Below, piece after piece: positions 2,766 through 45,382 of a stretch of 48,922 nucleotides of DNA (its first letter is position 1; each line of letters starts with the position of its first letter). This DNA is from a virus (taxonomy: Duplodnaviria; Caudoviricetes). The stretch is from the IMG/VR virus record IMGVR_UViG_3300042822_000036, positions 1 through 48,922 of that record; one strand, 5' to 3'. Below the pieces are notes generated by a model. It worked only from the letters and a program-made list of their open reading frames with translations, searched no databases and was not told where the DNA came from. A program made the position numbers and the translations under genes.

Positions 2766-3059
2766 TCAGTTCAGCGCGGTGACTCCTTCTCGAACCGCGC
2801 GCACCCGCGCCCTGTACGGCCGAAGACCAAGCGCCCGATCGACAGCGCCGAGCACGTCAGCTAATGAACCGCCGCACACCGCGGCAAAGAGCGCGCATGT
2901 CTCGATCGTCGGCGCGTGCACTCCGCGCTCGATCCGCCCAATGATCGAGCGGTACGAATCGCAGTGGAACGCGACCTGTGTCTGCGACAAACCCGATGCC
3001 AGCCGTAGCCGCCGAAGCTCAGCGCCAGCAGCGCGAGCAATTCGGTCGGCAACGATCAT
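2766..3059 (-). CDS. XRE-family HTH transcriptional regulator
   Basis: LRRLRLASGLSQTQVA...IGRIERG...PTIET pattern; ATGA-coupled to the upstream Cro-like gene. Confidence 0.8.
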   Translation of the reverse strand: MIVADRIARAAGAELRRLRLASGLSQTQVAFHCDSYRSIIGRIERGVHAPTIETCALFAAVCGGSLADVLGAVDRALGLRPYRARVRAVREGVTALN

Positions 3060-3364
3060 GCAACGCCCTCGCGCGGCTGCTCGCCCACGGGTTCGTCGTC
3101 GTCGTCGTCATCATCGTCCACGCTAGACGGTGGCGGATCCGTCGGCAGCGCCTGCGGCGGCGCGCCTTGCCCGAACACCAACCAGACACGGTCGACGTTG
3201 AACAGTCTGGACGCTTCCTCGAGCGTCGGTAACGTCAGCGGCGATTCACCGCGCTCCCATCGGCTCACGGTTTGCGGATCGACGTCGAACAACCTCGCCG
3301 TCTCGCGCTGCGTGAGGCCGCGAACACGACGTGCATGCCGAAAGCGATTGTGGCGGGAGTCCAT
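3056..3364 (-). CDS. Cro-like XRE HTH regulator with acidic tail
   Basis: RGLTQRETARLFDVDPQTVSRWERG; divergent from the repressor gene. Confidence 0.8.
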   Translation of the reverse strand: MDSRHNRFRHARRVRGLTQRETARLFDVDPQTVSRWERGESPLTLPTLEEASRLFNVDRVWLVFGQGAPPQALPTDPPPSSVDDDDDDDDEPVGEQPREGVA

Positions 3365-3509
3365 GGACTGAACCCAACAAGTCTAGGCATACGACGCGGA
3401 GTTTGCAATGCCGGAGCTCGGTCAGCGCCCGTCAAATGCTTTGCGCACATTGGACTAGGCACACCGCGTTTATACACGTTATACGCACCTGGTGCAGTAT
3501 CTACGCGAA
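3365..3509. promoter_or_regulatory. divergent cI/cro control region with CTAGGCA operator-like sites
   Basis: Intergenic region between divergent HTH genes; CTAGGCA at 3383-3389 and 3455-3461. Confidence 0.6.
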
Positions 3510-3941
3510 ATGTCTCTCGCCATTGAGGACGAGGAGCGCGGCAAACGGATCGCAGCCCTACGTGAAGCCCGCGACCTCGTGCAGGTGCAGCTCGCCGCCA
3601 AGCTTGGAGTGGACGCGCAAACCATCAGTCGGTGGGAGCGCGGTGCCAAATTCAAACCGAAAAACCTCGACAAACTCGTCAAATTCTTCGGTGTTAGCGC
3701 TGAGTTCATCCTCGAGGGCACGGCTGGCAACGCTGTCGTGACCTATCCCGCCTTCGCCGAGTACCAGGCGTGGTTGGAAAAGCACCCTGAGGAACTCGAG
3801 GCGCTGCCGCCGGGCGCGCTCGAGAATATACGCACCTTTCGACTTACAATCGCCAACGACTACGAACCAACTCTTCAGAGTTACATGGTGCTACATAGCT
3901 TTATGGTCGGGCTCAAGAAGCGCAAGCGTGGGCGCGGCTAG
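3510..3941 (+). CDS. CI-like repressor (XRE HTH, no S24 peptidase domain)
   Basis: LREARDLVQVQLAAKLGVDAQTISRWERG; recognition helix nearly identical to the Cro-like protein (QTVSRWERG). Alternative GTG start at 3492. Confidence 0.8.
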   Translation: MSLAIEDEERGKRIAALREARDLVQVQLAAKLGVDAQTISRWERGAKFKPKNLDKLVKFFGVSAEFILEGTAGNAVVTYPAFAEYQAWLEKHPEELEALPPGALENIRTFRLTIANDYEPTLQSYMVLHSFMVGLKKRKRGRG

Positions 3942-6486: not shown

Positions 6487-7455
6487 ATGCAGAACGCAGC
6501 AGCACCGAAACAAGATTCCACTCCCAAGACCGCCCCCAAGCGCATGAGCCTTGTCGGGGTGGTTCAGGGCCGAGTGCAAAAGCCCATCCGCGCCCTAGTG
6601 TGGGGCGTCGAGGGCATCGGAAAGAGCACCTTCGGGAGCAATGCCCCGTCACCGATCTTCCTCGGTGCGGAGGACGGCACGACCGAGCTCGATGTCGCGC
6701 GCTTCCCGGAGCCCACAAACTGGCAGCACGTTTTTGACGCAATCGCCGAGCTCACCACCGCCGAGCACAGCTACCGCACGCTGGTGCTCGACACCCTGGA
6801 CTGGCTCGAGCCGCTCAACTGGGAGCACGTCTGCGCCAAGGGGGACGGCCGTGGCAAACGCATCGCGTCCATCGAGGACTTCGGCTACGGCAAGGGCTAC
6901 GCGGCTGCGCTCGACGAGTGGCGTCGTGTGCTCGCCGCGATCGAGCGCCTGCGCAACACACGAAACATGCACGTCGTGCTCCTGGCGCACGGCTGGATCA
7001 AGCCGTTCAAGAACCCGGACGGCCCCGACTACGACAGGCACGAGCTCAAGCTCCACCCCAAGGCCGGCGGCCTGCTCAAGGAGTGGTGCGATGCCGTCTT
7101 GTTCGCGAACTACGAGACCTTGACGCACGAGAACAATGGCCGTCACAAGGGTATCTCGACCGGCGCCCGCGTCCTGCATACGCAGAGGCGCGCGGCCTTC
7201 GACGCCAAGAACCGCTACGACTTGCCCGAAACGCTCCCGCTCGACTGGGAAGCGTTCGCCGAGGCGGTCGCCGCCCACCGCCCCGCGGACCCGAACCAGC
7301 TCAAGGCGCGCATCTCCACGCTGCTCGAGCTGGCTGACGCCGAGACCCGCACCAAGGTCACCGCCGCACTCGCCAAGGTGGGCGACGACGCCGCCCAGCT
7401 CGCACGCATCGCAGACAAGCTCGCAGCCACCGTCAACATCAAGGAGAACTCATGA
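6487..7455 (+). CDS. Sak4-like (AAA_24) ATPase/recombinase
   Basis: Walker A GVEGIGKST, Walker B LVLDTLD, GYGKGY, EWCDAVLF, AKNRY; lies between exonuclease and SSB. Confidence 0.85.
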   Translation: MQNAAAPKQDSTPKTAPKRMSLVGVVQGRVQKPIRALVWGVEGIGKSTFGSNAPSPIFLGAEDGTTELDVARFPEPTNWQHVFDAIAELTTAEHSYRTLVLDTLDWLEPLNWEHVCAKGDGRGKRIASIEDFGYGKGYAAALDEWRRVLAAIERLRNTRNMHVVLLAHGWIKPFKNPDGPDYDRHELKLHPKAGGLLKEWCDAVLFANYETLTHENNGRHKGISTGARVLHTQRRAAFDAKNRYDLPETLPLDWEAFAEAVAAHRPADPNQLKARISTLLELADAETRTKVTAALAKVGDDAAQLARIADKLAATVNIKENS

Positions 7456-9969: not shown

Positions 9970-10202
9970 TGGGAGCGGCGGAGGACCGGCGAACCGACGA
10001 CGCTGAAGCGGATTTCACACCCGACGAGCGGGCGAAGCTGCGCGAGTTGCTCGATCTCATTGAGCGCGGCGCCCGCAAACGGTTGCGCGTTCGGCGCCCG
10101 GTTGACGATCCGGACGAGGACAGGGTAAGGCCGACCCCCGAACAGATCGCGGAGGTCCGGCGCAAGGTCAGGAAACACTTGAAGCGGCAAGGAGCACTAT
10201 GA
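9966..10202 (+). CDS. small basic protein, possible excisionase/recombination directionality factor
   Basis: 78 aa, Arg/Lys-rich, ATGA-coupled to the integrase; function from position only. Confidence 0.4.
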   Translation: MMGAAEDRRTDDAEADFTPDERAKLRELLDLIERGARKRLRVRRPVDDPDEDRVRPTPEQIAEVRRKVRKHLKRQGAL

Positions 10203-11479
10203 GGGAACCGAAGGGGCGTATTGACTGGGTCTATGCGAAGGACGGATCGCGCAAGGCGCGCGCTCGCTTCGCCGGTCTGTACCTTGGTCTGCACGACACG
10301 AAGGCGCTTGCGCAGGAGGCGATCGACGAGGCCAAGCGCGAGCGCGCGGGCGAGGACCCCGAAACCTGTCGAACCTACGCCGAAGAGTGGTTCAAGTTTC
10401 GCGAGGAGTCGGGCCACGTGCAGGACATCAGCGACCAGCGCAGCGACTGGCGATCACGTGTCGACATCGACACGGCCAAGTGGCTCGACATGACCCCGCG
10501 CCACGTTCGGCCCGTGCATCTGCAGACGTGGCTCAAGACGCTCGCCAAGCGCACGGCACAGGACGCGATTCGCCGCAAGCAGGACGGCGCATGGGTGACT
10601 GAGCTCGTCGACACTGGCCGCCCGCTTTCGCACGAGTCCGTTTCGAAGGCGGTGTCGCTGGTCAAGCTGTTCTTTGGCTGGCTGCTCAGCGAAGGCAAAA
10701 TGGGCAAGACCGAAGCCAACCCAGCGCGGGCGCTGCTCATGCCCGTTCGCAAGCGCGCCCAGCGCAAGGGAAGCCAACGCATCGTCCACCTGGTGGCCAA
10801 GGAGATCAAAGCGCTGTTCGCGCTCGAGATGCCGCTCAAGGTGCGCGCAGTGTTCGCCGTCGCCATCTATGCCGGACTGCGCCGCGGCGAGATATGGGGC
10901 CTGCGCTGGGAGTTCGTCGACCTCAAGGCCCGGAAGCTGTACATCCGAAACTCCTACCGCCGCGACGTCAAGACGGCGAGCTCGGTGCGTGACGTGCCCA
11001 TGTTGCCGTTCCTCTACGAGGTACTGAACGCCTACTGGAAATCGCTCACCCCACGACCGCTCCAGGGCCTGGTGTTCCCGGCGGCTAGCGGCGGTTGCCA
11101 CGGGGGCACGTACGACTGCGGCTGGAGCGACAAGCGGGCCCGCACCGCCTGGACCGACGAGCAGGGCGTCCGCCGTCACGGCAAGGCTGGGACGGTCAGG
11201 GTGACGCCCGGCTGGCGTTCCGCGGCTGGCGTGCGGCCCGAGGTCACGTTCCTGTGTCTGCGCCACACCACCGCCTGCCAGCTGCTCCAGGGGACCGTCC
11301 TGGGCAACGCAGAGCGCCTCGACCTGGAGGACATCTGCTCGTGGCTCGGCCACAGCGACATCGGGGTCACGCAGCGTCACTACGCCGAGTTCGCACCCGG
11401 CAACGTGCACGACAAGGCGCTCGGCCTGGGCAAGAAGCGCGCGGGCAAAGTGGAAAAGCAAAGTGGAAAACCGTTTTGA
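10199..11479 (+). CDS. int: tyrosine integrase
   Basis: YAGLRRGEIWGLRW (box I), VKT, CLRHT, WLGHSDIGVTQRHY (box II, catalytic Tyr); adjacent to a tRNA-derived attP. Confidence 0.92.
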   Translation: MREPKGRIDWVYAKDGSRKARARFAGLYLGLHDTKALAQEAIDEAKRERAGEDPETCRTYAEEWFKFREESGHVQDISDQRSDWRSRVDIDTAKWLDMTPRHVRPVHLQTWLKTLAKRTAQDAIRRKQDGAWVTELVDTGRPLSHESVSKAVSLVKLFFGWLLSEGKMGKTEANPARALLMPVRKRAQRKGSQRIVHLVAKEIKALFALEMPLKVRAVFAVAIYAGLRRGEIWGLRWEFVDLKARKLYIRNSYRRDVKTASSVRDVPMLPFLYEVLNAYWKSLTPRPLQGLVFPAASGGCHGGTYDCGWSDKRARTAWTDEQGVRRHGKAGTVRVTPGWRSAAGVRPEVTFLCLRHTTACQLLQGTVLGNAERLDLEDICSWLGHSDIGVTQRHYAEFAPGNVHDKALGLGKKRAGKVEKQSGKPF

Positions 11480-31193: not shown

Positions 31194-32369
31194 TTAGCTG
31201 CGCGCGTCCTTGCTCACGGAAAGCGGCTTTTGCCACTCGGGGACGAAGGCGTCCTGCCGCGCGGCGGAGGTGGACTGCGAGGTGTTCGACGTGGTGGCTG
31301 CCCGTGAGCGTTCGAGGGCGTCGTTGCGAGGCGCGCCTTGCTGCACCGGAGCGCTCGCTATCGCGCCATCGAAGCGCGCCTGCACGTACTCGTCGCTCTT
31401 GCCAGCCAGGTCGAGCTTGTCGTCGAGCTTTTTCAGAACCGCTTCATGGATCTGGCGCGGCGTCTGCCCATCGAACTTGTGCTCAGCGGGCAGTACCTTG
31501 CGCGCTTGTTCGAGCAGCGCAGAGCGCGCGGAGACCGCCTGGTCGAGGCGCTTGGGATCCTCGGCCGCGGCGAGCTTGGCTTTGAGATCCTTGTTCTCTT
31601 TCTCGGCCGCGTCCGCTCGGCCGAGGGCGGAGTCGCGCTCCTTGATGCGCTCGGCGAGCGCATCGTCGCGCTCTTTGAGCGCTTTCTCGAAGACCTGCGC
31701 GCCCACCTTGGGCACCTGGACGTCGAGACCGTCCACTCGCATCGTAACCGTGTCCATCTCCGACTCCTCTCCCGGCGGGTCGCTGGGCCCGTCGTCCCGC
31801 CGCTCTGGCGGCGCACCGAAGGCCGACGCGGTCATCGCGTCGCCAGAGTCCAGGCGCAGCGCCACTTCGCTGCCCGCGCGCCCCCAATTGCGCGGCCCAA
31901 GTGCCGCATGGTTGTACACGATGTCGCGCTGCACGGCGTCGTAGCGCTGGCCGTTGTAGTCGCCGGCTGTCACATCCAGCCGGCACTGATATCCGCAGCT
32001 GATCTCGCGCCGATCGCCACGTTCCACGCGCGCGATGACCTCTTCGTCTTCGATGGTGACGCTCGCCGCGACGAGGTTGCCGTCCTGGCGCACGGCCTCG
32101 CCGACGTGCCCGACACGCAGCGTGCGCACGTTCTTCGGCGACACCATCTCGGTCGGGTGCAGATCGGTCAGTGGCGCAGCCGATAGAGACGCGAGCGAGT
32201 CCGCGCGGAAGACTTCCTCGGGGGGCCGGAGCTCGCGGGCCATTGAGCCGTCGTGGCGCTTGTACTCGAACACGCCCGCGCGCGTCAGGAACGCGGCGAC
32301 GCGCAAGAAGCCCTGCGGAGTCCGCACGGGCTTGCCAATCTCAGCGACGTCGAATCGGTTGACGCGCAC
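31194..32369 (-). CDS. prohead protease/scaffold (DUF2213-like)
   Basis: TPQGFL, RPPEEVF, PLTDLHP, EISCGY, YNHAAL, GRAGSEVALRLD, then a coiled-coil scaffold region. Confidence 0.88.
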   Translation of the reverse strand: MRVNRFDVAEIGKPVRTPQGFLRVAAFLTRAGVFEYKRHDGSMARELRPPEEVFRADSLASLSAAPLTDLHPTEMVSPKNVRTLRVGHVGEAVRQDGNLVAASVTIEDEEVIARVERGDRREISCGYQCRLDVTAGDYNGQRYDAVQRDIVYNHAALGPRNWGRAGSEVALRLDSGDAMTASAFGAPPERRDDGPSDPPGEESEMDTVTMRVDGLDVQVPKVGAQVFEKALKERDDALAERIKERDSALGRADAAEKENKDLKAKLAAAEDPKRLDQAVSARSALLEQARKVLPAEHKFDGQTPRQIHEAVLKKLDDKLDLAGKSDEYVQARFDGAIASAPVQQGAPRNDALERSRAATTSNTSQSTSAARQDAFVPEWQKPLSVSKDARS

Positions 32370-32372
32370 CGC

Positions 32373-32404
32373 CGCTGGTATGCGCGGCTTTGCAGGGTGT
32401 CAAG
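32373..32404 (-). promoter_or_regulatory. putative late promoter, copy 2
   Basis: C-TTGACA-N10-CCGCGCATACCAGCG-GCG-GTG(start of 31194..32369). Confidence 0.7.
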
Positions 32405-32479
32405 CCCAGTGCCTTATCCGTCATGGATGGTGTTCATGTAGGCATCCCGGCTCGGGAGAAGCGGGTTAGAGGGAACGCG

Positions 32480-32534
32480 ATAAAGAGTGTGACGCTTTTA
32501 CTTGTGCGCGTGCATAAAGCGTGTCACTCTTTAT
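32480..32534 (+). promoter_or_regulatory. tandem palindromic operators of the TA operon
   Basis: ATAAAGAGTGTGACGCTTTTA (32480-32500) and ATAAAGCGTGTCACTCTTTAT (32514-32534) directly upstream of the toxin GTG. Confidence 0.65.
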
Positions 32535-32536
32535 TG

Positions 32537-32833
32537 GTGGAGTTCACGTGGGACCCGAAGAAGGCAGAGCAAAACATCCGGGACCACGAGGGCGTGACGT
32601 TCGAGGAAGCCAGAACCGTGTTCGAGGATCCATTCGCGCAGCACAAGCTCGATGCGGACATCCTGCACGAGATCAGGATCCGGACCATCGGTCAGTCGCT
32701 TGCGGGTCGCACGCTGTTCGTCGTGTCCCTCGAGATTGAGGACGGAGAGATCGCCCGCATCGTCAGTGCCCGCAAGGCTACCCCAAAGGAGCGCCGAGAC
32801 TATGAAAAAGCCAAACGCAAAACGCGCCGCTGA
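32537..32833 (+). CDS. brnT: BrnT-family (DUF497) ribonuclease toxin
   Basis: EFTWDPKKAEQNIRDHEGVTFEEARTVFEDP, E-x-R-x-RTIG, RIVSARKATPKERRDY. Confidence 0.88.
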   Translation: MEFTWDPKKAEQNIRDHEGVTFEEARTVFEDPFAQHKLDADILHEIRIRTIGQSLAGRTLFVVSLEIEDGEIARIVSARKATPKERRDYEKAKRKTRR

Positions 32834-33116
32834 GCGCGGGCCGTCCGCGGCGTCACTTGCCGCGATGCCCGAAGTCGATTTCACCACCGGCATCGTGGGC
32901 CAGGGCCCCGACGGGTACCGTGCTGTGGTCGCCTATGCACGAGCCAAGCGTGGCCGCCCGAAGAAGGGCGAGAAGGCGGTGGGTACTACAACCAAGTCGG
33001 TGCGCCTCACCGACGCCGAGTGGTCGCTGCTCAAGAAACGGGCCGAGCGCGAGCACATCTCTGTGCATGCGCTCTTGCGTCAGGCTGTAGCCGAGCTGCT
33101 GCGCAAGGCGGGGTGA
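32802..33116 (+). CDS. BrnA/CopG-like ribbon-helix-helix antitoxin
   Basis: MPEVDF, RGRPKKG, SVRLTDAEWSLLKKRAEREHISVHALLRQAV; overlaps the toxin 3' end. Confidence 0.8.
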   Translation: MKKPNAKRAAERGPSAASLAAMPEVDFTTGIVGQGPDGYRAVVAYARAKRGRPKKGEKAVGTTTKSVRLTDAEWSLLKKRAEREHISVHALLRQAVAELLRKAG

Positions 33117-33122
33117 CCTGCG

Positions 33123-33368
33123 TCATTCGTCCGGCACGGTGTCGACGTAGCAGTAGGTGCTGTTGCCGAACGCACGCTCGAGCGCGTCGTAATACACGAG
33201 CCCATCGGACGGGTTGAGCAACTTGTTGCGGCCGACGAGGCCGTCCAGGCCGAAGCTCTTTATCGCCCCCTTTGAGACCTCCGTGATGACCACGCGGTCG
33301 CCTTGCAACCGGAAGGTCGCGACGGCTTCCTTGCGGCCGTCCGAGCACACCAGCATGAGGCGTTTCAT
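33123..33368 (-). CDS. small protein coupled to MuF-kinase (candidate immunity protein)
   Basis: 81 aa; ATG overlaps the MuF stop (ATGA). Confidence 0.65.
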   Translation of the reverse strand: MKRLMLVCSDGRKEAVATFRLQGDRVVITEVSKGAIKSFGLDGLVGRNKLLNPSDGLVYYDALERAFGNSTYCYVDTVPDE

Positions 33369-35260
33369 CGGCGCGCCCCAGCGAGGCGATCGATTTCCGC
33401 GAGGTCGCCCCGACCGAGGCCCCGCTTTTCCGGTTCACGACCCAGCCACTTACGCATCGCCTCAGTTGGGGACTCGGACTGCGACAGACGGGCGAGCTGC
33501 TCGGGGTCAAGCTGGAGTGAGCGAATTCTGGCCAAGGTTTCCCGGATTTGGCGTGATGTGATGCCCGGTTGCCGACGCAAAATCGCCGCAACCCGGGGGA
33601 GGCTCAGCGCCCGGAGTTCCCGGATGCTTGTCTCATCCAATGTGAGCATAGCACGTGCAAAGGCGACGGGTTCGATGGCAAAAAAGAAGCGTTTCGGGGT
33701 GCCTTCCGGGAAAGCCGTTCCGTGGTCGATGGCGCTCACTTCAAAGCCGCCGTGAGGCTTGCGCCGCCACAATGCGTTGGCGCCGTGTCGATCGTCATTC
33801 GCCGCGATAACATCGAGCAGGAACATTCGCCGCACGCTTGGTTCCGCCGCCAACTTGGCCACCGGTGTCAGCTCCTCCAGCTCTACCCTGAGTTCGAAGG
33901 TGCGTTTCCCATCTACAAAAGCCTGCAGCGCCCCCTCTTGGCCGTTGAGGTTGCGAGACACTGTGGAGGGGACGACTGGCGGCCCACCAAGCGCACGGTC
34001 GAGGTCGTGCATCGCAACTTCTCGCTGATAGTACGTTCCCAACTGGACTCCCTTGCGTTGCGCGTCGACTTCATCCTCGTGCGCTTTCCACATCGCCAGT
34101 TGGCGTCGGCCGTCAGCGTCCTTCAGCGTGAGCTTCCGAGCACCATTGATTCCTTCGTTGCTGTACTCGCTTTTGAGAACTTCGACGTCGGCAGTCATCC
34201 ACTCCGGCACCTCGCTCGACGGCACCGCGATCGGCGGTGGTTTGCTCGGCGGTGGTACTGACCTGAGTCCTGGCTTGGGCGCCGTGCTAAGCGTACCGAG
34301 CGTGCTGGGCGTACCGAGCGTGCTGGGCGTACCGAGCGTGCTGGGCGTACCGAGCGTGCTGGGCGTGGACCGCTCCGGGCCAAGTAGCCCCGCCTCCCGC
34401 AAGACGTCGTCCACGTCCGGGATGGCCTGGCAGCGGCACCGGATGGGCTGGCCCGGGTGCGCCGGCACGCCGTCGACCATGGGCGGCTTGTCCCAACGCT
34501 GGTGCGTATCGTTCATAGCGCGGTGGCTCTTGCGCACGCGCTCGTCCTGGCTGGTCGACCAGGTGTAGTGCTTGATGCCGACTTGCTGCTGGCGGAGCTG
34601 CGCGAGCTCGCCATTGAGCGACGCGACCTGGTCGGTGGCGATCAGCGCAGCGCGGCGCCGGGACATCCCGAACCGCTCTTGAATCTCCTTGGCTACCTCC
34701 TCGTGGCGGTGCCCGAGGCGCGCGCCTCGCAGGATGATCCCCTTCAAATCCTCGAGCTGATCGAACGCGACCGACTTCACCAGGCGCACGTTGTCGGCCA
34801 CAAATGCGTCGATGTGCTGGGCGAGCCCCGCAGTTTGCTCGAAGAGATCGATCTTTGCGACCGCGTGAATTTGGCGCTCGAGCTCGCCGCGGCTGTGCTC
34901 ACTCACGCGCAGCGCGTTCTCCTGGGCCAGCATCTGGATCTGGCGCTCAGGGATGCGCCGCTCGAGGTCCCTGCGCGCGTCTGAAAGAGACTTCTCGGTG
35001 AGCGAGCCAGTGTCGTCCACGCGCAGTTCGATGGCGTCGGGCCGGAGCAGCTTGTGCTGGCCCAAGATCACCGGCAGAAGCGGCAGCACGTCGCGCCGAA
35101 CGGTGGCCTCGACGATATCCAGGATACCGAGGATGCCTCGCAGATAGGCCACGCGCGCGGCCGATGGGAACCGCGCCGTCGGCATCCGTGGGCGCTTCTT
35201 GCGCTTGGGGACGCGCCCGATCAGCGCCATCTGCCGCAGCGCCAGTTCGAGCGGTCGCAT
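33365..35260 (-). CDS. MuF/SPP1 gp7-like minor head protein fused to a C-terminal PI3K/PI4K/HipA-like kinase domain
   Basis: MuF motifs RAALIATDQ, YTWSTSQDERVRKSH, HPGQPIRCRC. Kinase motifs EGING, AMWK, REVAMHDLD, VVPSTV, GALQAFV, LDVIAANDDRHGAN, IDHGTAF. Located after the portal gene. Confidence 0.88.
   Translation of the reverse strand: MRPLELALRQMALIGRVPKRKKRPRMPTARFPSAARVAYLRGILGILDIVEATVRRDVLPLLPVILGQHKLLRPDAIELRVDDTGSLTEKSLSDARRDLERRIPERQIQMLAQENALRVSEHSRGELERQIHAVAKIDLFEQTAGLAQHIDAFVADNVRLVKSVAFDQLEDLKGIILRGARLGHRHEEVAKEIQERFGMSRRRAALIATDQVASLNGELAQLRQQQVGIKHYTWSTSQDERVRKSHRAMNDTHQRWDKPPMVDGVPAHPGQPIRCRCQAIPDVDDVLREAGLLGPERSTPSTLGTPSTLGTPSTLGTPSTLGTLSTAPKPGLRSVPPPSKPPPIAVPSSEVPEWMTADVEVLKSEYSNEGINGARKLTLKDADGRRQLAMWKAHEDEVDAQRKGVQLGTYYQREVAMHDLDRALGGPPVVPSTVSRNLNGQEGALQAFVDGKRTFELRVELEELTPVAKLAAEPSVRRMFLLDVIAANDDRHGANALWRRKPHGGFEVSAIDHGTAFPEGTPKRFFFAIEPVAFARAMLTLDETSIRELRALSLPRVAAILRRQPGITSRQIRETLARIRSLQLDPEQLARLSQSESPTEAMRKWLGREPEKRGLGRGDLAEIDRLAGARR
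34291..34366. repeat. 18-bp tandem repeat encoding (TPSTLG)x4 linker
   Basis: GCGTACCGAGCGTGCTGG x4 perfect copies at 34291-34362 plus partial flanks. Confidence 0.95.
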
Positions 35261-36705
35261 TACTCGTCCGCCTCGGGCTCAGGCGGTGGCTGTGGCGGCG
35301 GCTGTCCTGGCGGGTTGCCTGGGCCGAGCAGCTGCGGCGGAACGACCGCAGGCTTACCGGCCTCTTCTTCCAGGAGCTCGAGCTCGGCCTGTAGCGCGCG
35401 CTTGCGAACGTCGACGTCGATGGTGCTGAAGTCACCATCTTGGGCAAGTTCGATCGCGGCCTCCTCGGGCAACATGATCAGCGCCGTCACGAGCGCCGCC
35501 ACCGTATCGGCCTTCACCTTCTTGGTCTCCGCGCGCTCCTTGTCGGTCGGCTGCCAGAGCGGCCTGAACACGAGCTTCCAGTTCTCGGGCTCCTTGCCGC
35601 CCGTGGGTCCGGCTTTGGCGAGCATGAACAGCTTGATGAGTCGCTCGAGCCGGGGGCGGAGCACGTCGTTCTGCGCATCCTCCACCGTGTCGTACCAGCT
35701 GCGGATGTCGCTCTCGCCAGTCGCGTTCAGGCCCGCCGGCGAGCGGCCGTACAGCAGGGTCACCGGCATCTCGGCCGCAGCGGCATCGCGCATCATGAAG
35801 CGGTCGAGCATCTCGGGTAGACCTGCGAAGCTGGTCGCAACGCGCTGAAACTCTTCCCGGTCCGCGTCGACCAGGATCGCTCGGCACACCGAGCGCGCCA
35901 TGTCCATCATCTCCATGCGCGTGCGCAGGACGGCTTCGCTGCCGGCTGCGATGAGGTCGACGAGGTTGGCGATCTTGAGCACGCCCTGCGACGCGTCCGC
36001 GACCAAGTGGGCGGTGGACTGCCAGGCCGTGGCGCTCTGCCGAATGCTTTCCTCGGCGCGCTGCAGTACCGAATCATCCCATCCGTCGTCGCTGTACACG
36101 CCGCGAGCGGTGACGGCGCCGGGGAACATGATGAGCCTCGAGCGATGGATGAGCACCTCTTCGGTGGTGGCGACCGAGCTCGTGCGGCGCACCACGTACA
36201 GCTCGGGCTCACCGAAGAATGGATCGCGTACGTCTTCAGACCGCGTGCGCACCTGCAGCTGCGAGCGCTTGAGTACATTCAGAAACGCAATGTCGCGGAT
36301 GCGGTCCTCGGCGAGCGGTTCAGCCGGCTCAAGCCCATCGTCGGCACCGACGAACACCCCACCGCCGCCGTAGAGCCGGCCCCAAATCCAGGCTTCGCGG
36401 AGCTTGGGCAACGCCGACATGTCCTCCAAGCGGCCGATCAGCGCTCGCATGGCCTCGGCGGATTCTTCGCGGCTGAGGCCCTCGAACTCCAGCGTGAAGC
36501 CTCGGCGCGTGGCGTCGCGCGGGAGCCGATCCACGATCTTCGCGGCGAAGGCGTCGTCGTTGTAGAGCGCCTCGAGCTGGCTCTCCTGCAGGCGCAGCCC
36601 CGGCACGATCTGGGCGTGGGAAAGCTTGTCGCGCAAGCCCCCAAGGCCGGTGAGCGCGTTGACCCAGCTATCGGCGCGCTGCACGAGTCGTGCCGCGACG
36701 CTCAT
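35260..36705 (-). CDS. portal protein (DUF1073-like)
   Basis: DSWVNALTGLG, WGRLYGGG, IHRSRLI, PVTLLYGRSPAGLNATGESD, FRPLWQPTDKE; follows the terminase. Confidence 0.88.
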   Translation of the reverse strand: MSVAARLVQRADSWVNALTGLGGLRDKLSHAQIVPGLRLQESQLEALYNDDAFAAKIVDRLPRDATRRGFTLEFEGLSREESAEAMRALIGRLEDMSALPKLREAWIWGRLYGGGGVFVGADDGLEPAEPLAEDRIRDIAFLNVLKRSQLQVRTRSEDVRDPFFGEPELYVVRRTSSVATTEEVLIHRSRLIMFPGAVTARGVYSDDGWDDSVLQRAEESIRQSATAWQSTAHLVADASQGVLKIANLVDLIAAGSEAVLRTRMEMMDMARSVCRAILVDADREEFQRVATSFAGLPEMLDRFMMRDAAAAEMPVTLLYGRSPAGLNATGESDIRSWYDTVEDAQNDVLRPRLERLIKLFMLAKAGPTGGKEPENWKLVFRPLWQPTDKERAETKKVKADTVAALVTALIMLPEEAAIELAQDGDFSTIDVDVRKRALQAELELLEEEAGKPAVVPPQLLGPGNPPGQPPPQPPPEPEADE

Positions 36706-43162: not shown

Positions 43163-43458
43163 GCCGGCACCTCAGCGGCGACGAACGCGTCGTAGTCCAC
43201 GACCGCCTCGAGCGCTGCGATCTTGGCCGCTGTCCGGCACTCCGGGGCGAGCTCACCGCGCATGGTCGATGTGCCGAGCTTTGTCAGGTACGCCGCGCAC
43301 CACAGCTGCCGCCGGGTGTCAGCGCCGGTGGTTGCGGCTTGGCACTCCACATAGTCCGAGAGCGCGTCGACCGCGTCGATGATCATGCTCTCCGACGGTG
43401 TGATCGGTTCCTTCTCGGCCTCGGACAGGCGCAGCCGGATGAGCTCGAGGAGCGTCAT
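43159..43458 (-). CDS. hypothetical protein
   Basis: Start MTLLELIRL overlapping the MTase stop. Confidence 0.55.
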   Translation of the reverse strand: MTLLELIRLRLSEAEKEPITPSESMIIDAVDALSDYVECQAATTGADTRRQLWCAAYLTKLGTSTMRGELAPECRTAAKIAALEAVVDYDAFVAAEVPA

Positions 43459-45170
43459 GCCGGCACCTCGCGTTCGGGCGTGACCCACACCGCGCCATCG
43501 GGCCGCATCAGCATTGTGGCCTCGGCCTCCTCGACCAGCGCGATCAGCATCTGCTCGGCGATCGCGCGGGCAGCCGGCGGCGGAACCGCGTTGCCGATGC
43601 GCTCGCGCCATGCGGTCGACGACTTGCCGGCGAGCTCGAGCGGTTTGCCATCGACCTCGGTGGGTAAGCCCTGCAGTGCGGCGAGTTCCAGCGTTGTGAG
43701 CGGGCGGTGCCATGTGCCGTCGGCGGCGATGATCACCGGCACCACCGGCGGCGGCTTGCGCAAGTCCTCGATGATCATGACGGGGCGGTCCTCGGGCAGC
43801 CGCGGATCGGCGACCGCCCAGGCCCCGTTGTCGACACCCGCAACGCCCGTGACCGTCTTCGCCGCCTCGGTCCATGCGATCACGCCATAGGCGCCTTTTC
43901 GCGGCTCGCTCGGCACGCGAACGTCGGCGACAGAGTAGGCGCCCGTGCCGGGGTGCGCCTTGCCGTGCACTACGAAGCTCGGTTCGTCCCAGCGCAGGAT
44001 GCGATAGCCGTGGTCGTAGGCCACACGCACGCGTGGGTCGGCCACCGCGAACGTGCCGCCAGCCGGCACTGCATTGCCCGTCACCGTCCCGAGCGGCTCA
44101 GTCCACGGTTTCACGCCGAGCGCTCCGCCACCGAACGTGTCGCGGTAGCCGATGCGCGGATCGGCGACTGCTGGCGCGCCTGAACCGGGTCGGCTCGCTC
44201 CGATCACGGTGGACGCAGGCTCGTCCCAGGCGCCGACGCTGTACTTGTTCCAGTGGGCGCCCTGATTGCCCTGCTGCGGCACGACGCGCGGGTCGGCCAC
44301 GTTGGCCACACCATTGCTGCCGCTGCCTGCAACCGCGCCGGTTGGCTCTGTCCAGTCTTCGACCGCGTGGCGTCTGTGCACTGCGCGACGCTCGAGGTCG
44401 CCGAGCACGCCGGGCAGGTCGCGCCAATCGCCGCCGGCTGGGATGAGCGCGAGTCGAACCCAGTTGAGCCACGAGATCCTCGGCATGACGTGGAGCACGC
44501 CGCCGGCGGGGTCGTTCGGCATTGGAAGCTTCTCAAGAACTTCACCGCATGCACGCACGCGACGCTTGGGCGGCTGGTAGAGCAGCGGCGATATCCTCGA
44601 CGGCAGCCGCGCCACCAGCAGGAACCGGCGACGACGCTGCGCGAGGCCTCCGAGCTCGCCGCAGTCGTGGGACTGCTCGTGAAAAACATAGCCCGCGCGC
44701 CGCAGGAGCTTGCGGACCTTGCGCAACAAGTGCCGGCCACGGCTCGCGATGCGCGGCACGTTCTCAACCAGCACCAGGCCCGGCGGGCGATCAGCCCATG
44801 CCTCGAGCATGATCGTCGTCCAATGTAGTACGAGCCGGTTCAGCGCTCGGTACTTCGGCGCTCGCGAAACCGCCCGGCCGAGCAAGCCGCTGAACCCTTT
44901 GCACGGTGGCGAGAGGAATACGCAGTCCGGCGCGACGGAGCAGAACGCAAGGAGGTTGTCAGCTCTCATCGCAGCAATATCGGCGACGAGGCACGGCGAC
45001 TTGGTCAGACGCTCGAAGTCCTGCGCTGCGAGCGGATCGGAGTCGATGCCGCCGAGCGATCGAAACAGGCCGCGCCGCCCGAGCAAGCGAGCCTCAGCCT
45101 GCTGGAATCCAAGCGCGCCACCACCGATGCCGCAGAAGGGGAACAGCGCCGTGAAGGTACAGTCGGTCAT
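43455..45170 (-). CDS. DNA (cytosine-5)-methyltransferase with repeated variable region
   Basis: Motif I FCGIGG, IV SPPCKGFS, VI ENV, VIII QRRRR, IX-X RPLTTLELAALQ...IGNAVPP. Confidence 0.9.
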   Translation of the reverse strand: MTDCTFTALFPFCGIGGGALGFQQAEARLLGRRGLFRSLGGIDSDPLAAQDFERLTKSPCLVADIAAMRADNLLAFCSVAPDCVFLSPPCKGFSGLLGRAVSRAPKYRALNRLVLHWTTIMLEAWADRPPGLVLVENVPRIASRGRHLLRKVRKLLRRAGYVFHEQSHDCGELGGLAQRRRRFLLVARLPSRISPLLYQPPKRRVRACGEVLEKLPMPNDPAGGVLHVMPRISWLNWVRLALIPAGGDWRDLPGVLGDLERRAVHRRHAVEDWTEPTGAVAGSGSNGVANVADPRVVPQQGNQGAHWNKYSVGAWDEPASTVIGASRPGSGAPAVADPRIGYRDTFGGGALGVKPWTEPLGTVTGNAVPAGGTFAVADPRVRVAYDHGYRILRWDEPSFVVHGKAHPGTGAYSVADVRVPSEPRKGAYGVIAWTEAAKTVTGVAGVDNGAWAVADPRLPEDRPVMIIEDLRKPPPVVPVIIAADGTWHRPLTTLELAALQGLPTEVDGKPLELAGKSSTAWRERIGNAVPPPAARAIAEQMLIALVEEAEATMLMRPDGAVWVTPEREVPA

Positions 45171-45382
45171 GCAGCCGACTCCTTCTTCGCCCGCTTCCGC
45201 TCGAACCAGCAGTCGGTGCAGAGCTCGCCCCTGGCGTCGTACTCGTCGGAGTCGCCACCCGCGCACGCGGGCTTGACTGCCCGGCAGGCAGCGCACTTGA
45301 ACAGCGCGCACTCATCGCCGTGCTCGGCCTTACGCACGCAGGCGCGGTCCTTTGCGTACGGGCAGTGAACAGGGTCGGTCAC
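45167..45382 (-). CDS. small Cys-rich protein
   Basis: Multiple Cys pairs; coupled on both sides. Confidence 0.55.
   Translation of the reverse strand: MTDPVHCPYAKDRACVRKAEHGDECALFKCAACRAVKPACAGGDSDEYDARGELCTDCWFERKRAKKESAA

Follow-up and report, generated by a model that had tools for sequence, protein, structure and literature searches.

Polymorphic toxins of the MuF class, as set out in PMC5576092, PMC12226406, and PMC11699363, consist of a MuF N-terminus encoded right after the portal gene and a variable C-terminal tip, with a short open reading frame (ORF; under 150 aa) directly downstream, in temperate phages. SPP1 gp7 binds the portal, with 1-2 copies in each capsid, and MuF tips have been hypothesised to be delivered (PMC5576092). 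The tips Apk2 (PMC12226406) and Bxa (PMC11699363) are reported to be toxic and to be neutralised by the small downstream proteins IapK and Bsi, respectively. We analysed a phage genome of 48,922 nt (IMG/VR record IMGVR_UViG_3300042822_000036, positions 1 to 48,922; this whole stretch is called the window here) that encodes a 631-aa MuF head protein (33365-35260, minus strand) between the portal and prohead-protease genes. Its layout matches that of the described systems, including a downstream ORF of 81 aa (33123-33368, minus strand), termed the partner, that overlaps the stop codon of the MuF gene by 4 nt. By contrast, the tips described in those papers are nucleases, metallopeptidases, ADP-ribosyltransferases (ARTs), RelA-like synthetases, and deaminases, whereas the tip here resembles type II phosphatidylinositol 4-kinases (PI4K-II), and no family of Pfam, PHROG, or NCBIfam matches the partner. 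We propose, with a probability of roughly 55%, that the pair is a virion-delivered kinase effector and its cognate inhibitor, and hence a new tip type of the MuF polymorphic toxins, in which kinase activity, substrate, packaging, and binding are predicted.

A preliminary description of this DNA had read residues ~1-285 of the protein as a MuF/gp7-type head protein, and profile searches agree. Phage_Mu_F (PF04233) matches residues 176-280 (34421-34735; E 1.8e-17), phrog_324 (head morphogenesis) matches residues 19-288 (E 3e-60), and the SPP1 gp7 family TIGR01641 also matches (E 2.4e-17), so that we place the head module at residues 1-290 (34391-35260, minus strand). It is followed by a Pro/Ser/Thr-rich linker (34208-34390, minus strand) that contains 4.7 copies of an 18-nt repeat (34283-34366) and within which short and kinase-bearing sister MuF proteins diverge, and then by the kinase domain at residues 352-631 (33365-34207, minus strand). 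The five kinase motifs noticed earlier are all present, starting at residues 369 (EGING), 389 (AMWK), 413 (REVA), 488 (NDDRHGAN), and 511 (IDHG). The impression that the kinase part is more A/T-rich than the MuF part was also correct: GC content is 0.618 versus 0.675 (Fisher p 0.015) and GC content at third codon positions (GC3) is 0.68 versus 0.87 (p 4e-8), with the same pattern in a sister locus (L003). The partner gene, at GC3 0.88, does not share the A/T-richness of the kinase. We rejected the idea that the fusion is an assembly chimera, because an independent contig (L002) encodes the complete protein with a single residue difference and because six other full-length MuF-kinase proteins were found. 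Contigs from sequencing runs reach both sides of the linker repeat, and none of the listed pieces spans it.

The tip contains the beta3 Lys (K392), the helix C Glu (E414), the DRHxxN catalytic loop (D490, H492, N495), and the metal-binding Asp (D512) of the PI3K/PI4K-like superfamily. In an alignment of 22 diverse tips, K392, D490, R491, N495, D512, G514, F517, and P518 are invariant (22/22), and E414 and H492 are conserved at 90% or more. The ratio of nonsynonymous to synonymous substitution rates (dN/dS) of the kinase in one pair of related loci (L012/L015) is 0.09. The alignment and this ratio support an active site that is intact and under purifying selection.

Profile and structural comparisons point to the PI4K-II lineage. 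When a profile of the tip was compared with the PDB, PI4KII alpha and beta ranked best (E 2.9e-15 to 2.6e-14), followed by Fam20 kinases (E 1.2e-5). Structure prediction (AlphaFold, from a 4-sequence alignment) gave a kinase fold, for which VIA-align placed PI4KII alpha (4pla/4hnd) at the top with a Z of 9.7, a root-mean-square deviation (rmsd) of 4.6-4.7, and 217 aligned positions; a Z of 8 or more was reached by 2 of 48,161 chains, and lower ranks were taken by CtkA (7.0), Fam20 (6.8), MavQ (6.6), 7wcf (6.0), and HipA (5.1). A Foldseek search with the same model returned kinases only (template-modelling [TM] score about 0.3), and the ESM atlas linked the tip, at 0.96, to uncharacterised PI3K/PI4K-like clusters. 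Searched as a single protein, the tip reached E 1e-3 with PF00454 (19.3 bits, below the cut-off of 27.1) and E 3e-9 with TIGR03843 (36.7 bits, far below the cut-off of 172.4); both families match all 22 tips loosely, and several relatives pass the PF00454 cut-off. Fam20C matches 8/22 tips, HipA_2 matches 6/22, and HipA_C matches 1/22 (E 0.04). The tip has no PHROG match, and a single-sequence search of the PDB returned a designed-repeat artefact only.

Membership in the HipA family was rejected on the basis of the HipA_C result and of the loop consensus LGxGxN, which lacks a conserved Ser, in contrast to the Ser-containing Gly-rich autophosphorylation loop set out in PMC10627512. Thus, the preliminary assignment to a PI3K/PI4K/HipA group stands for PI4K-II by profile and fold and falls for HipA. 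The expected pairing of Phage_Mu_F with a PI3_PI4_kinase or HipA_C domain was likewise recovered in part, in that the MuF match is clear, PF00454 stays below its cut-off, and HipA_C does not match this protein. On profile and model evidence, we classify the tip as a PI4K-II-like atypical kinase that is not a member of the HipA, T7 kinase (T7K), or polyvalent-STY groups; its catalytic activity is a prediction.

Comparison with each of these groups is consistent with this classification. The tip shares its predicted fold and the spacing of its catalytic motifs with type II PI4-kinases (PDB 4hnd, 4pla, 9hhm), with PF00454, and with the SCO1664 family TIGR03843, but differs from them in its 18% identity, the lack of a CCPCC motif, scores below the PF00454 and TIGR03843 cut-offs, a phage head context, and a dedicated partner gene. 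HipBST and hipJS modules, as described in PMC10627512 and PMC8262856, also pair an atypical kinase with a small protein from a neighbouring gene, and the predicted fold of the partner ranks nearest, weakly, to HipS and HipA N-subdomain-1; however, the tip lacks the conserved Gly-loop serine motif, is accompanied by no HipB, matches HipA_C in one of the 22 tips, and is fused to a virion protein. The T7 kinase Gp0.7 and its homologues provide a functional precedent, as phage kinases whose phosphorylation disarms host defences, but T7K is described as similar to the dual-specificity kinases of eukaryotes and as having a DPV motif together with a shut-off domain (PMC13645617), whereas the tip has a DHG/DNG-x-x-FP motif, is head-anchored, and is encoded in the late head module. 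Polyvalent proteins (Iyer 2017, PMC5512222) likewise string enzyme domains on MuF or portal anchors, and relatives of the protein described here add ART, zeta, GNAT, 2H, and ParB domains. The polyvalent STY kinase is reported there to have lost the whole C-terminal subdomain, whereas the model of the tip keeps a helical C-lobe (domain positions 183-278), modelled at a predicted local distance difference test (pLDDT) score of 74-91. The MuF-fused kinase of that paper is of the P-loop zeta type, whereas the tip aligns with PI4KII alpha over residues 1-276.

Because the tip is PI4K-II-like, a lipid or a small molecule has to be taken seriously as an alternative to a protein substrate. With the same delivery and the same inhibitor, such a kinase would phosphorylate an inositol lipid or a similar component of the host membrane, with easier DNA entry, altered signalling, or poisoning of the cell as the outcome. 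The lead of PI4KII over Fam20 in the profile search and over CtkA and 7wcf in the structural search argues for this possibility, as do related domains in five Nocardia genomes and in Actinophytocola, since actinobacteria make phosphatidylinositol. Yet residues 352-631 contain no cysteine and hence no CCPCC motif, the palmitoylation motif required by PI4KII alpha (PMC3974213); the fold list also holds the protein kinases CtkA, Fam20C, actin-fragmin kinase, CotH, and HipA; and the carriers of the kinase span GC contents of 0.30-0.70, which suggests that the hosts are too diverse to share a single rare lipid. We lean modestly toward protein Ser/Thr substrates and regard a lipid or small-molecule kinase as unlikely, though the most serious of the alternatives. 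A more specific form of it, in which a phosphoinositide-type lipid kinase of a prokaryotic-virus PI4K-II branch is injected to remodel host membranes at infection and is controlled by a remote HipS-related inhibitor, seems to us less likely again; if true, one mobile virion cassette would link eukaryotic PI4K-II and bacterial HipA toxins.

Sister head modules indicate how the kinase and its partner move. Scans with the MuF profile returned 27 loci, of which 18 were analysed after nine re-fetches or duplicates had been dropped. Three of these loci carry kinase and partner, 13 encode a short MuF, one has another tip with a different small ORF, and one is truncated. Six-frame scans found neither the kinase nor the partner in any of the 14 complete kinase-less loci, some of which are near-copies (best E 0.39). 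The kinase-bearing MuF of L058 is 91% identical to short MuF proteins, and its DNA matches theirs up to the RRPSLVPP codons and diverges after them. On the MuF tree, the kinase label requires five changes, at least three of which are forced by well-supported branches, and clustering of the label does not differ clearly from shuffles (65/500). Between the window and L003, flanking genes are 84-97% identical overall (terL 93%, portal 89%, MuF 90%, major capsid protein 92%), as against 55% for the kinase and 48% for the partner, and synonymous sites are saturated in the kinase only (pS 0.76 versus 0.41-0.48 in the flanks). The low identity of kinase and partner amid conserved flanks fits cassette exchange by recombination. 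These genome comparisons show that the two genes behave as one cassette, which is gained, lost, and exchanged as a unit and sits on different head anchors. In L063 (1453-2970; the same as L033), a sister MuF that is 60% identical carries a different tip followed by a different 70-aa ORF; this tip looks ART-like by eye, from a motif only, and it has no Pfam match and a BLASTP E of 0.29 to the ART of L005.

The sister loci also bear on the possibility that the partner is an activating subunit or a substrate of the kinase, the two forming a split enzyme for head assembly or ejection. Both genes are missing from sister phages that share the head module, which implies that neither is needed for assembly, and the partner has diverged at the pace of the kinase (48% against flanks of about 90%), as cognate immunity proteins are reported to do (35-38% for IapK, PMC12226406). 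On the other side stand a conserved Ser near the C-terminus of 64% of 50 partners and the arrangement in L030 (3366-6949), where each of two tandem kinase ORFs begins with a partner-like domain, as N-subdomain-1 does in HipA, and a free partner gene lies downstream, so that the locus mirrors the HipA layout. We consider a subunit or substrate role the least probable of the alternatives.

The gap between the MuF and protease genes is an insertion hot spot. In the window, it holds a BrnT toxin and ribbon-helix-helix (RHH) antitoxin pair between the partner and the protease (32390-33116, plus strand; PF04365 E 3.6e-19, with RHH-type matches for the antitoxin), and five sister loci (L051-L053, L055, L066) contain other inserts of 0.5-1.1 kb at the same site. 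We rejected the BrnT/RHH pair as part of the kinase system, since it is missing from L003. A site that accepts such insertions, including the unrelated ones of L051-L053 and L066, would also suit a toxin-antitoxin-like moron that acts in the producer or lysogen, in abortive infection, addiction, or superinfection defence, with the MuF fusion a product of the hot spot and delivery incidental. This explanation gains from loci in which the partner lies on the opposite strand (L004 and L125), from stand-alone forms of the kinase (for example, L104 and L135), and from the kinase-then-HipS modules of the hipJS type described in PMC8262856. Against it, the kinase recurs in frame on unrelated head anchors, namely MuF and the Mu-type, lambda-type, and HK97-type portals, and no HipB-like regulator accompanies the kinase in the window or L003. 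We judge an origin of this kind improbable. In L004 (partner at 6891-7145, minus strand) and L125, the partner gene is convergent to the kinase gene and must therefore have a transcript separate from that of the late head operon.

The partner forms a family that travels with the kinase. A first set of viral scans yielded 31 loci, and a partner profile was grown from the ORFs downstream of their kinases. The profile detected a partner in 29/31 of these loci, with both misses ending inside the kinase gene, a count that is partly circular in that 20 of the ORFs trained the profile. A later scan gave 103 viral matches, 80 of which were kept; the held-out test applied a fixed profile (A3) to 52 new contigs (28 re-fetched ones having been dropped), which formed 37 clusters, 36 of them with room downstream of the kinase. 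The partner lies within 60 nt of the kinase stop codon in 25/36 clusters (24 on the same strand and one on the opposite strand), at 253-323 nt in two, and at 1366 nt in one. Its dN/dS in the L012/L015 pair is 0.06. Distances among kinases and among partners are correlated (rho 0.59; 0/5000 permutations), and the nearest neighbour is the same in 13/20 cases. On account of this co-occurrence and of the absence of the partner from kinase-less sister loci, we predict that the partner is a cognate inhibitor or immunity protein.

Additional small proteins and fusions were seen near some partners. A second conserved, unnamed ORF of ~100 aa follows the partner in L004 (7296-7595), L009 (7180-7485), and L010 (7185-7475). 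A weak partner-like domain starts a long ORF with 2H and an XkdF protease in L026 (6711-9074; E 1.6e-3) and a long ORF with a type IB topoisomerase core in L031 (6735-8330; E 1.5e-4).

Kinases of this type are linked to head proteins across many viral genomes. Among 21 distinct proteins of the first set, eight carry MuF and two carry a portal domain, and ART, zeta, GNAT, ParB, and 2H domains occur as additions. In the held-out clusters (32 of 37 scanned for anchors; four open-ended clusters and one scanned earlier were left out), MuF was found in 19/32 and a portal in 3/32 at E up to 0.005. The kinase shares one polypeptide with a zeta toxin in L020 and L028, an ART in L005 and L092, a zincin-like peptidase in L100, and intein-like stretches in L120 and L124. 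Assemblies of bacteria and archaea yielded 12 loci with more distant kinase relatives, among them those of Nocardia and Actinophytocola; among the 12, a clear partner was seen in one, which represents the same element as L021, and weak matches were seen in two. The Nocardia loci (L036-L039 and L043) encode single PI4K-like domains with no partner detected, and the Actinophytocola locus (L042, 1-8583) encodes a protein of >2860 aa in which two PI4K-like kinase domains are combined with an EndoU nuclease at the C-terminus. L034, a contig of a Thorarchaeota metagenome-assembled genome, and L021 represent a single virus-like element that has a portal gene and, on either side of one partner gene, two tandem kinase ORFs; its presence in an Asgard archaeal bin could reflect a virus of archaea or an artefact of binning. 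In 50,697 GenBank phage records, neither the partner nor any of three kinase queries had a match, and database rows already co-annotate PF00454 with PF04233.

Taken with the MuF literature, these results suggest the following model for a delivered kinase effector. The MuF-kinase protein would be made late and the partner co-translated with it, so that the partner keeps the kinase off in the producer. By analogy with SPP1 gp7 and other MuF proteins, the kinase is likely packed in the head beside the portal in 1-3 copies and likely injected along with the DNA, as hypothesised for the whole MuF class. The partner, which has no head anchor, would for that reason be left behind, and the kinase would be free to act only once a new cell is infected, in which it may phosphorylate host proteins and blunt defences or growth. 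Inhibition is predicted to occur by direct contact, as for IapK and Bsi on other MuF tips and for HipS, which is reported to inhibit HipT through contact at the Gly-rich loop (PMC10627512). The preliminary description had already proposed a MuF-kinase polymorphic toxin; location in the head module, tip polymorphism, purifying selection on an intact active site, and a co-travelling downstream ORF favour that proposal. The kinase itself is better described as PI4K-II-like than as HipA- or T7K-like.

Several results weigh against this model. The tip model is of moderate quality (pLDDT 65, with the catalytic loop under 50), and the closest solved relatives of the tip are lipid kinases, not protein kinases. 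The partner is not detectable in 8/36 held-out clusters, and the correlation between kinase and partner distances is expected from linkage alone. The L030 fusion fits a subunit as well as an inhibitor. Resemblance of the partner to HipS is weak. VIA-align of the partner model (AF2, pLDDT 93.6) placed HipS/HipA-N chains at ranks 1, 2, 4, and 12 of 48,161 at a weak Z of 3.0-3.8 (HipS 7ab3_B, Z 3.8, rmsd 3.6, 65 aligned; HipA-N, Z 3.5 and 3.3; 7vkb_B, Z 3.0). Couple_hipA, the top atlas row for the partner, fell under the atlas bar (TM 0.58), Foldseek with the partner model found no match, PF13657 matched 0/21 partners at E up to 1, and an hhalign comparison of 50 partners with 27 HipA-N rows scored 8.65 against a shuffled mean of 9.04. 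Homology to HipS is thus not supported by sequence, and we treat the likeness as a weak, model-based lead. Finally, no sigma-70-type promoter-like site for separate expression of the partner in a lysogen was found in 32200-35400, and kin immunity is therefore less supported than protection during assembly.

The remainder of the window is that of a tailed phage, with terminase, portal, protease, capsid, tail, and baseplate genes recognised by profile searches. The portal gene (35260-36705, minus strand; PF06381 E 2.4e-85) lies directly upstream of the MuF-kinase gene, and the DUF2213 prohead-protease gene (31194-32369, minus strand; PF09979 E 3.8e-44; phrog_530) lies downstream of the cassette. 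The record is probably a complete circular genome, because a 412-aa reading frame runs across its ends. An integrase gene (10199-11479; PF00589) and divergent helix-turn-helix genes (2766-3941) suggest that the phage is probably temperate, a lifestyle predicted from genes only, here and in the comparison with MuF toxins above. A C5 cytosine methylase of 618 aa, whose Pfam match is split into two stretches, is encoded at 43455-45311 (minus strand). The best-matching public sequencing runs are soil metagenomes, and no RNA run is among the public runs listed as matching the phage DNA. The best terminase matches are 47% or less and point to no host.

The preliminary description knew of no characterised MuF-kinase, which is too strong as worded. 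Iyer 2017 reports MuF kinases of the zeta type, and Table S5 of Jamet 2017 (PMC5576092) lists four deltaproteobacterial MuF proteins of 1524-1529 aa, namely YP_003807778.1, YP_388399.1, YP_004199686.1, and YP_847907.1, whose Other_domain entry reads 'Kinase' with no type given and is not counted among the toxins; the word occurs 0 times in the main text of that paper. These four labels could lower the novelty of the system; no protein like them was found among 301 genomes sampled from one phylum. What does hold is narrower, in that our literature search, which left most subscription journals outside, found no paper on a PI4K-like tip of a MuF or portal protein or on the partner family. From sequence comparison, we conclude that the cassette is real, intact, and widespread, and that, within the known class of MuF/portal effectors, both its tip type and its partner family are new. 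MuF and portal proteins thereby gain, as a further cargo, a PI4K-II-lineage kinase with its own unnamed partner family, and the pair is widespread in uncultured phages, as the 103 viral matches of one scan indicate. The T7 kinase acts after gene expression, whereas a kinase packaged in the head would be at work before phage genes are read. As both domains are small, they offer a cheap test of what MuF tips do, and the same pair bears on the substrates of prokaryotic PI4K-II-like proteins such as SCO1664.

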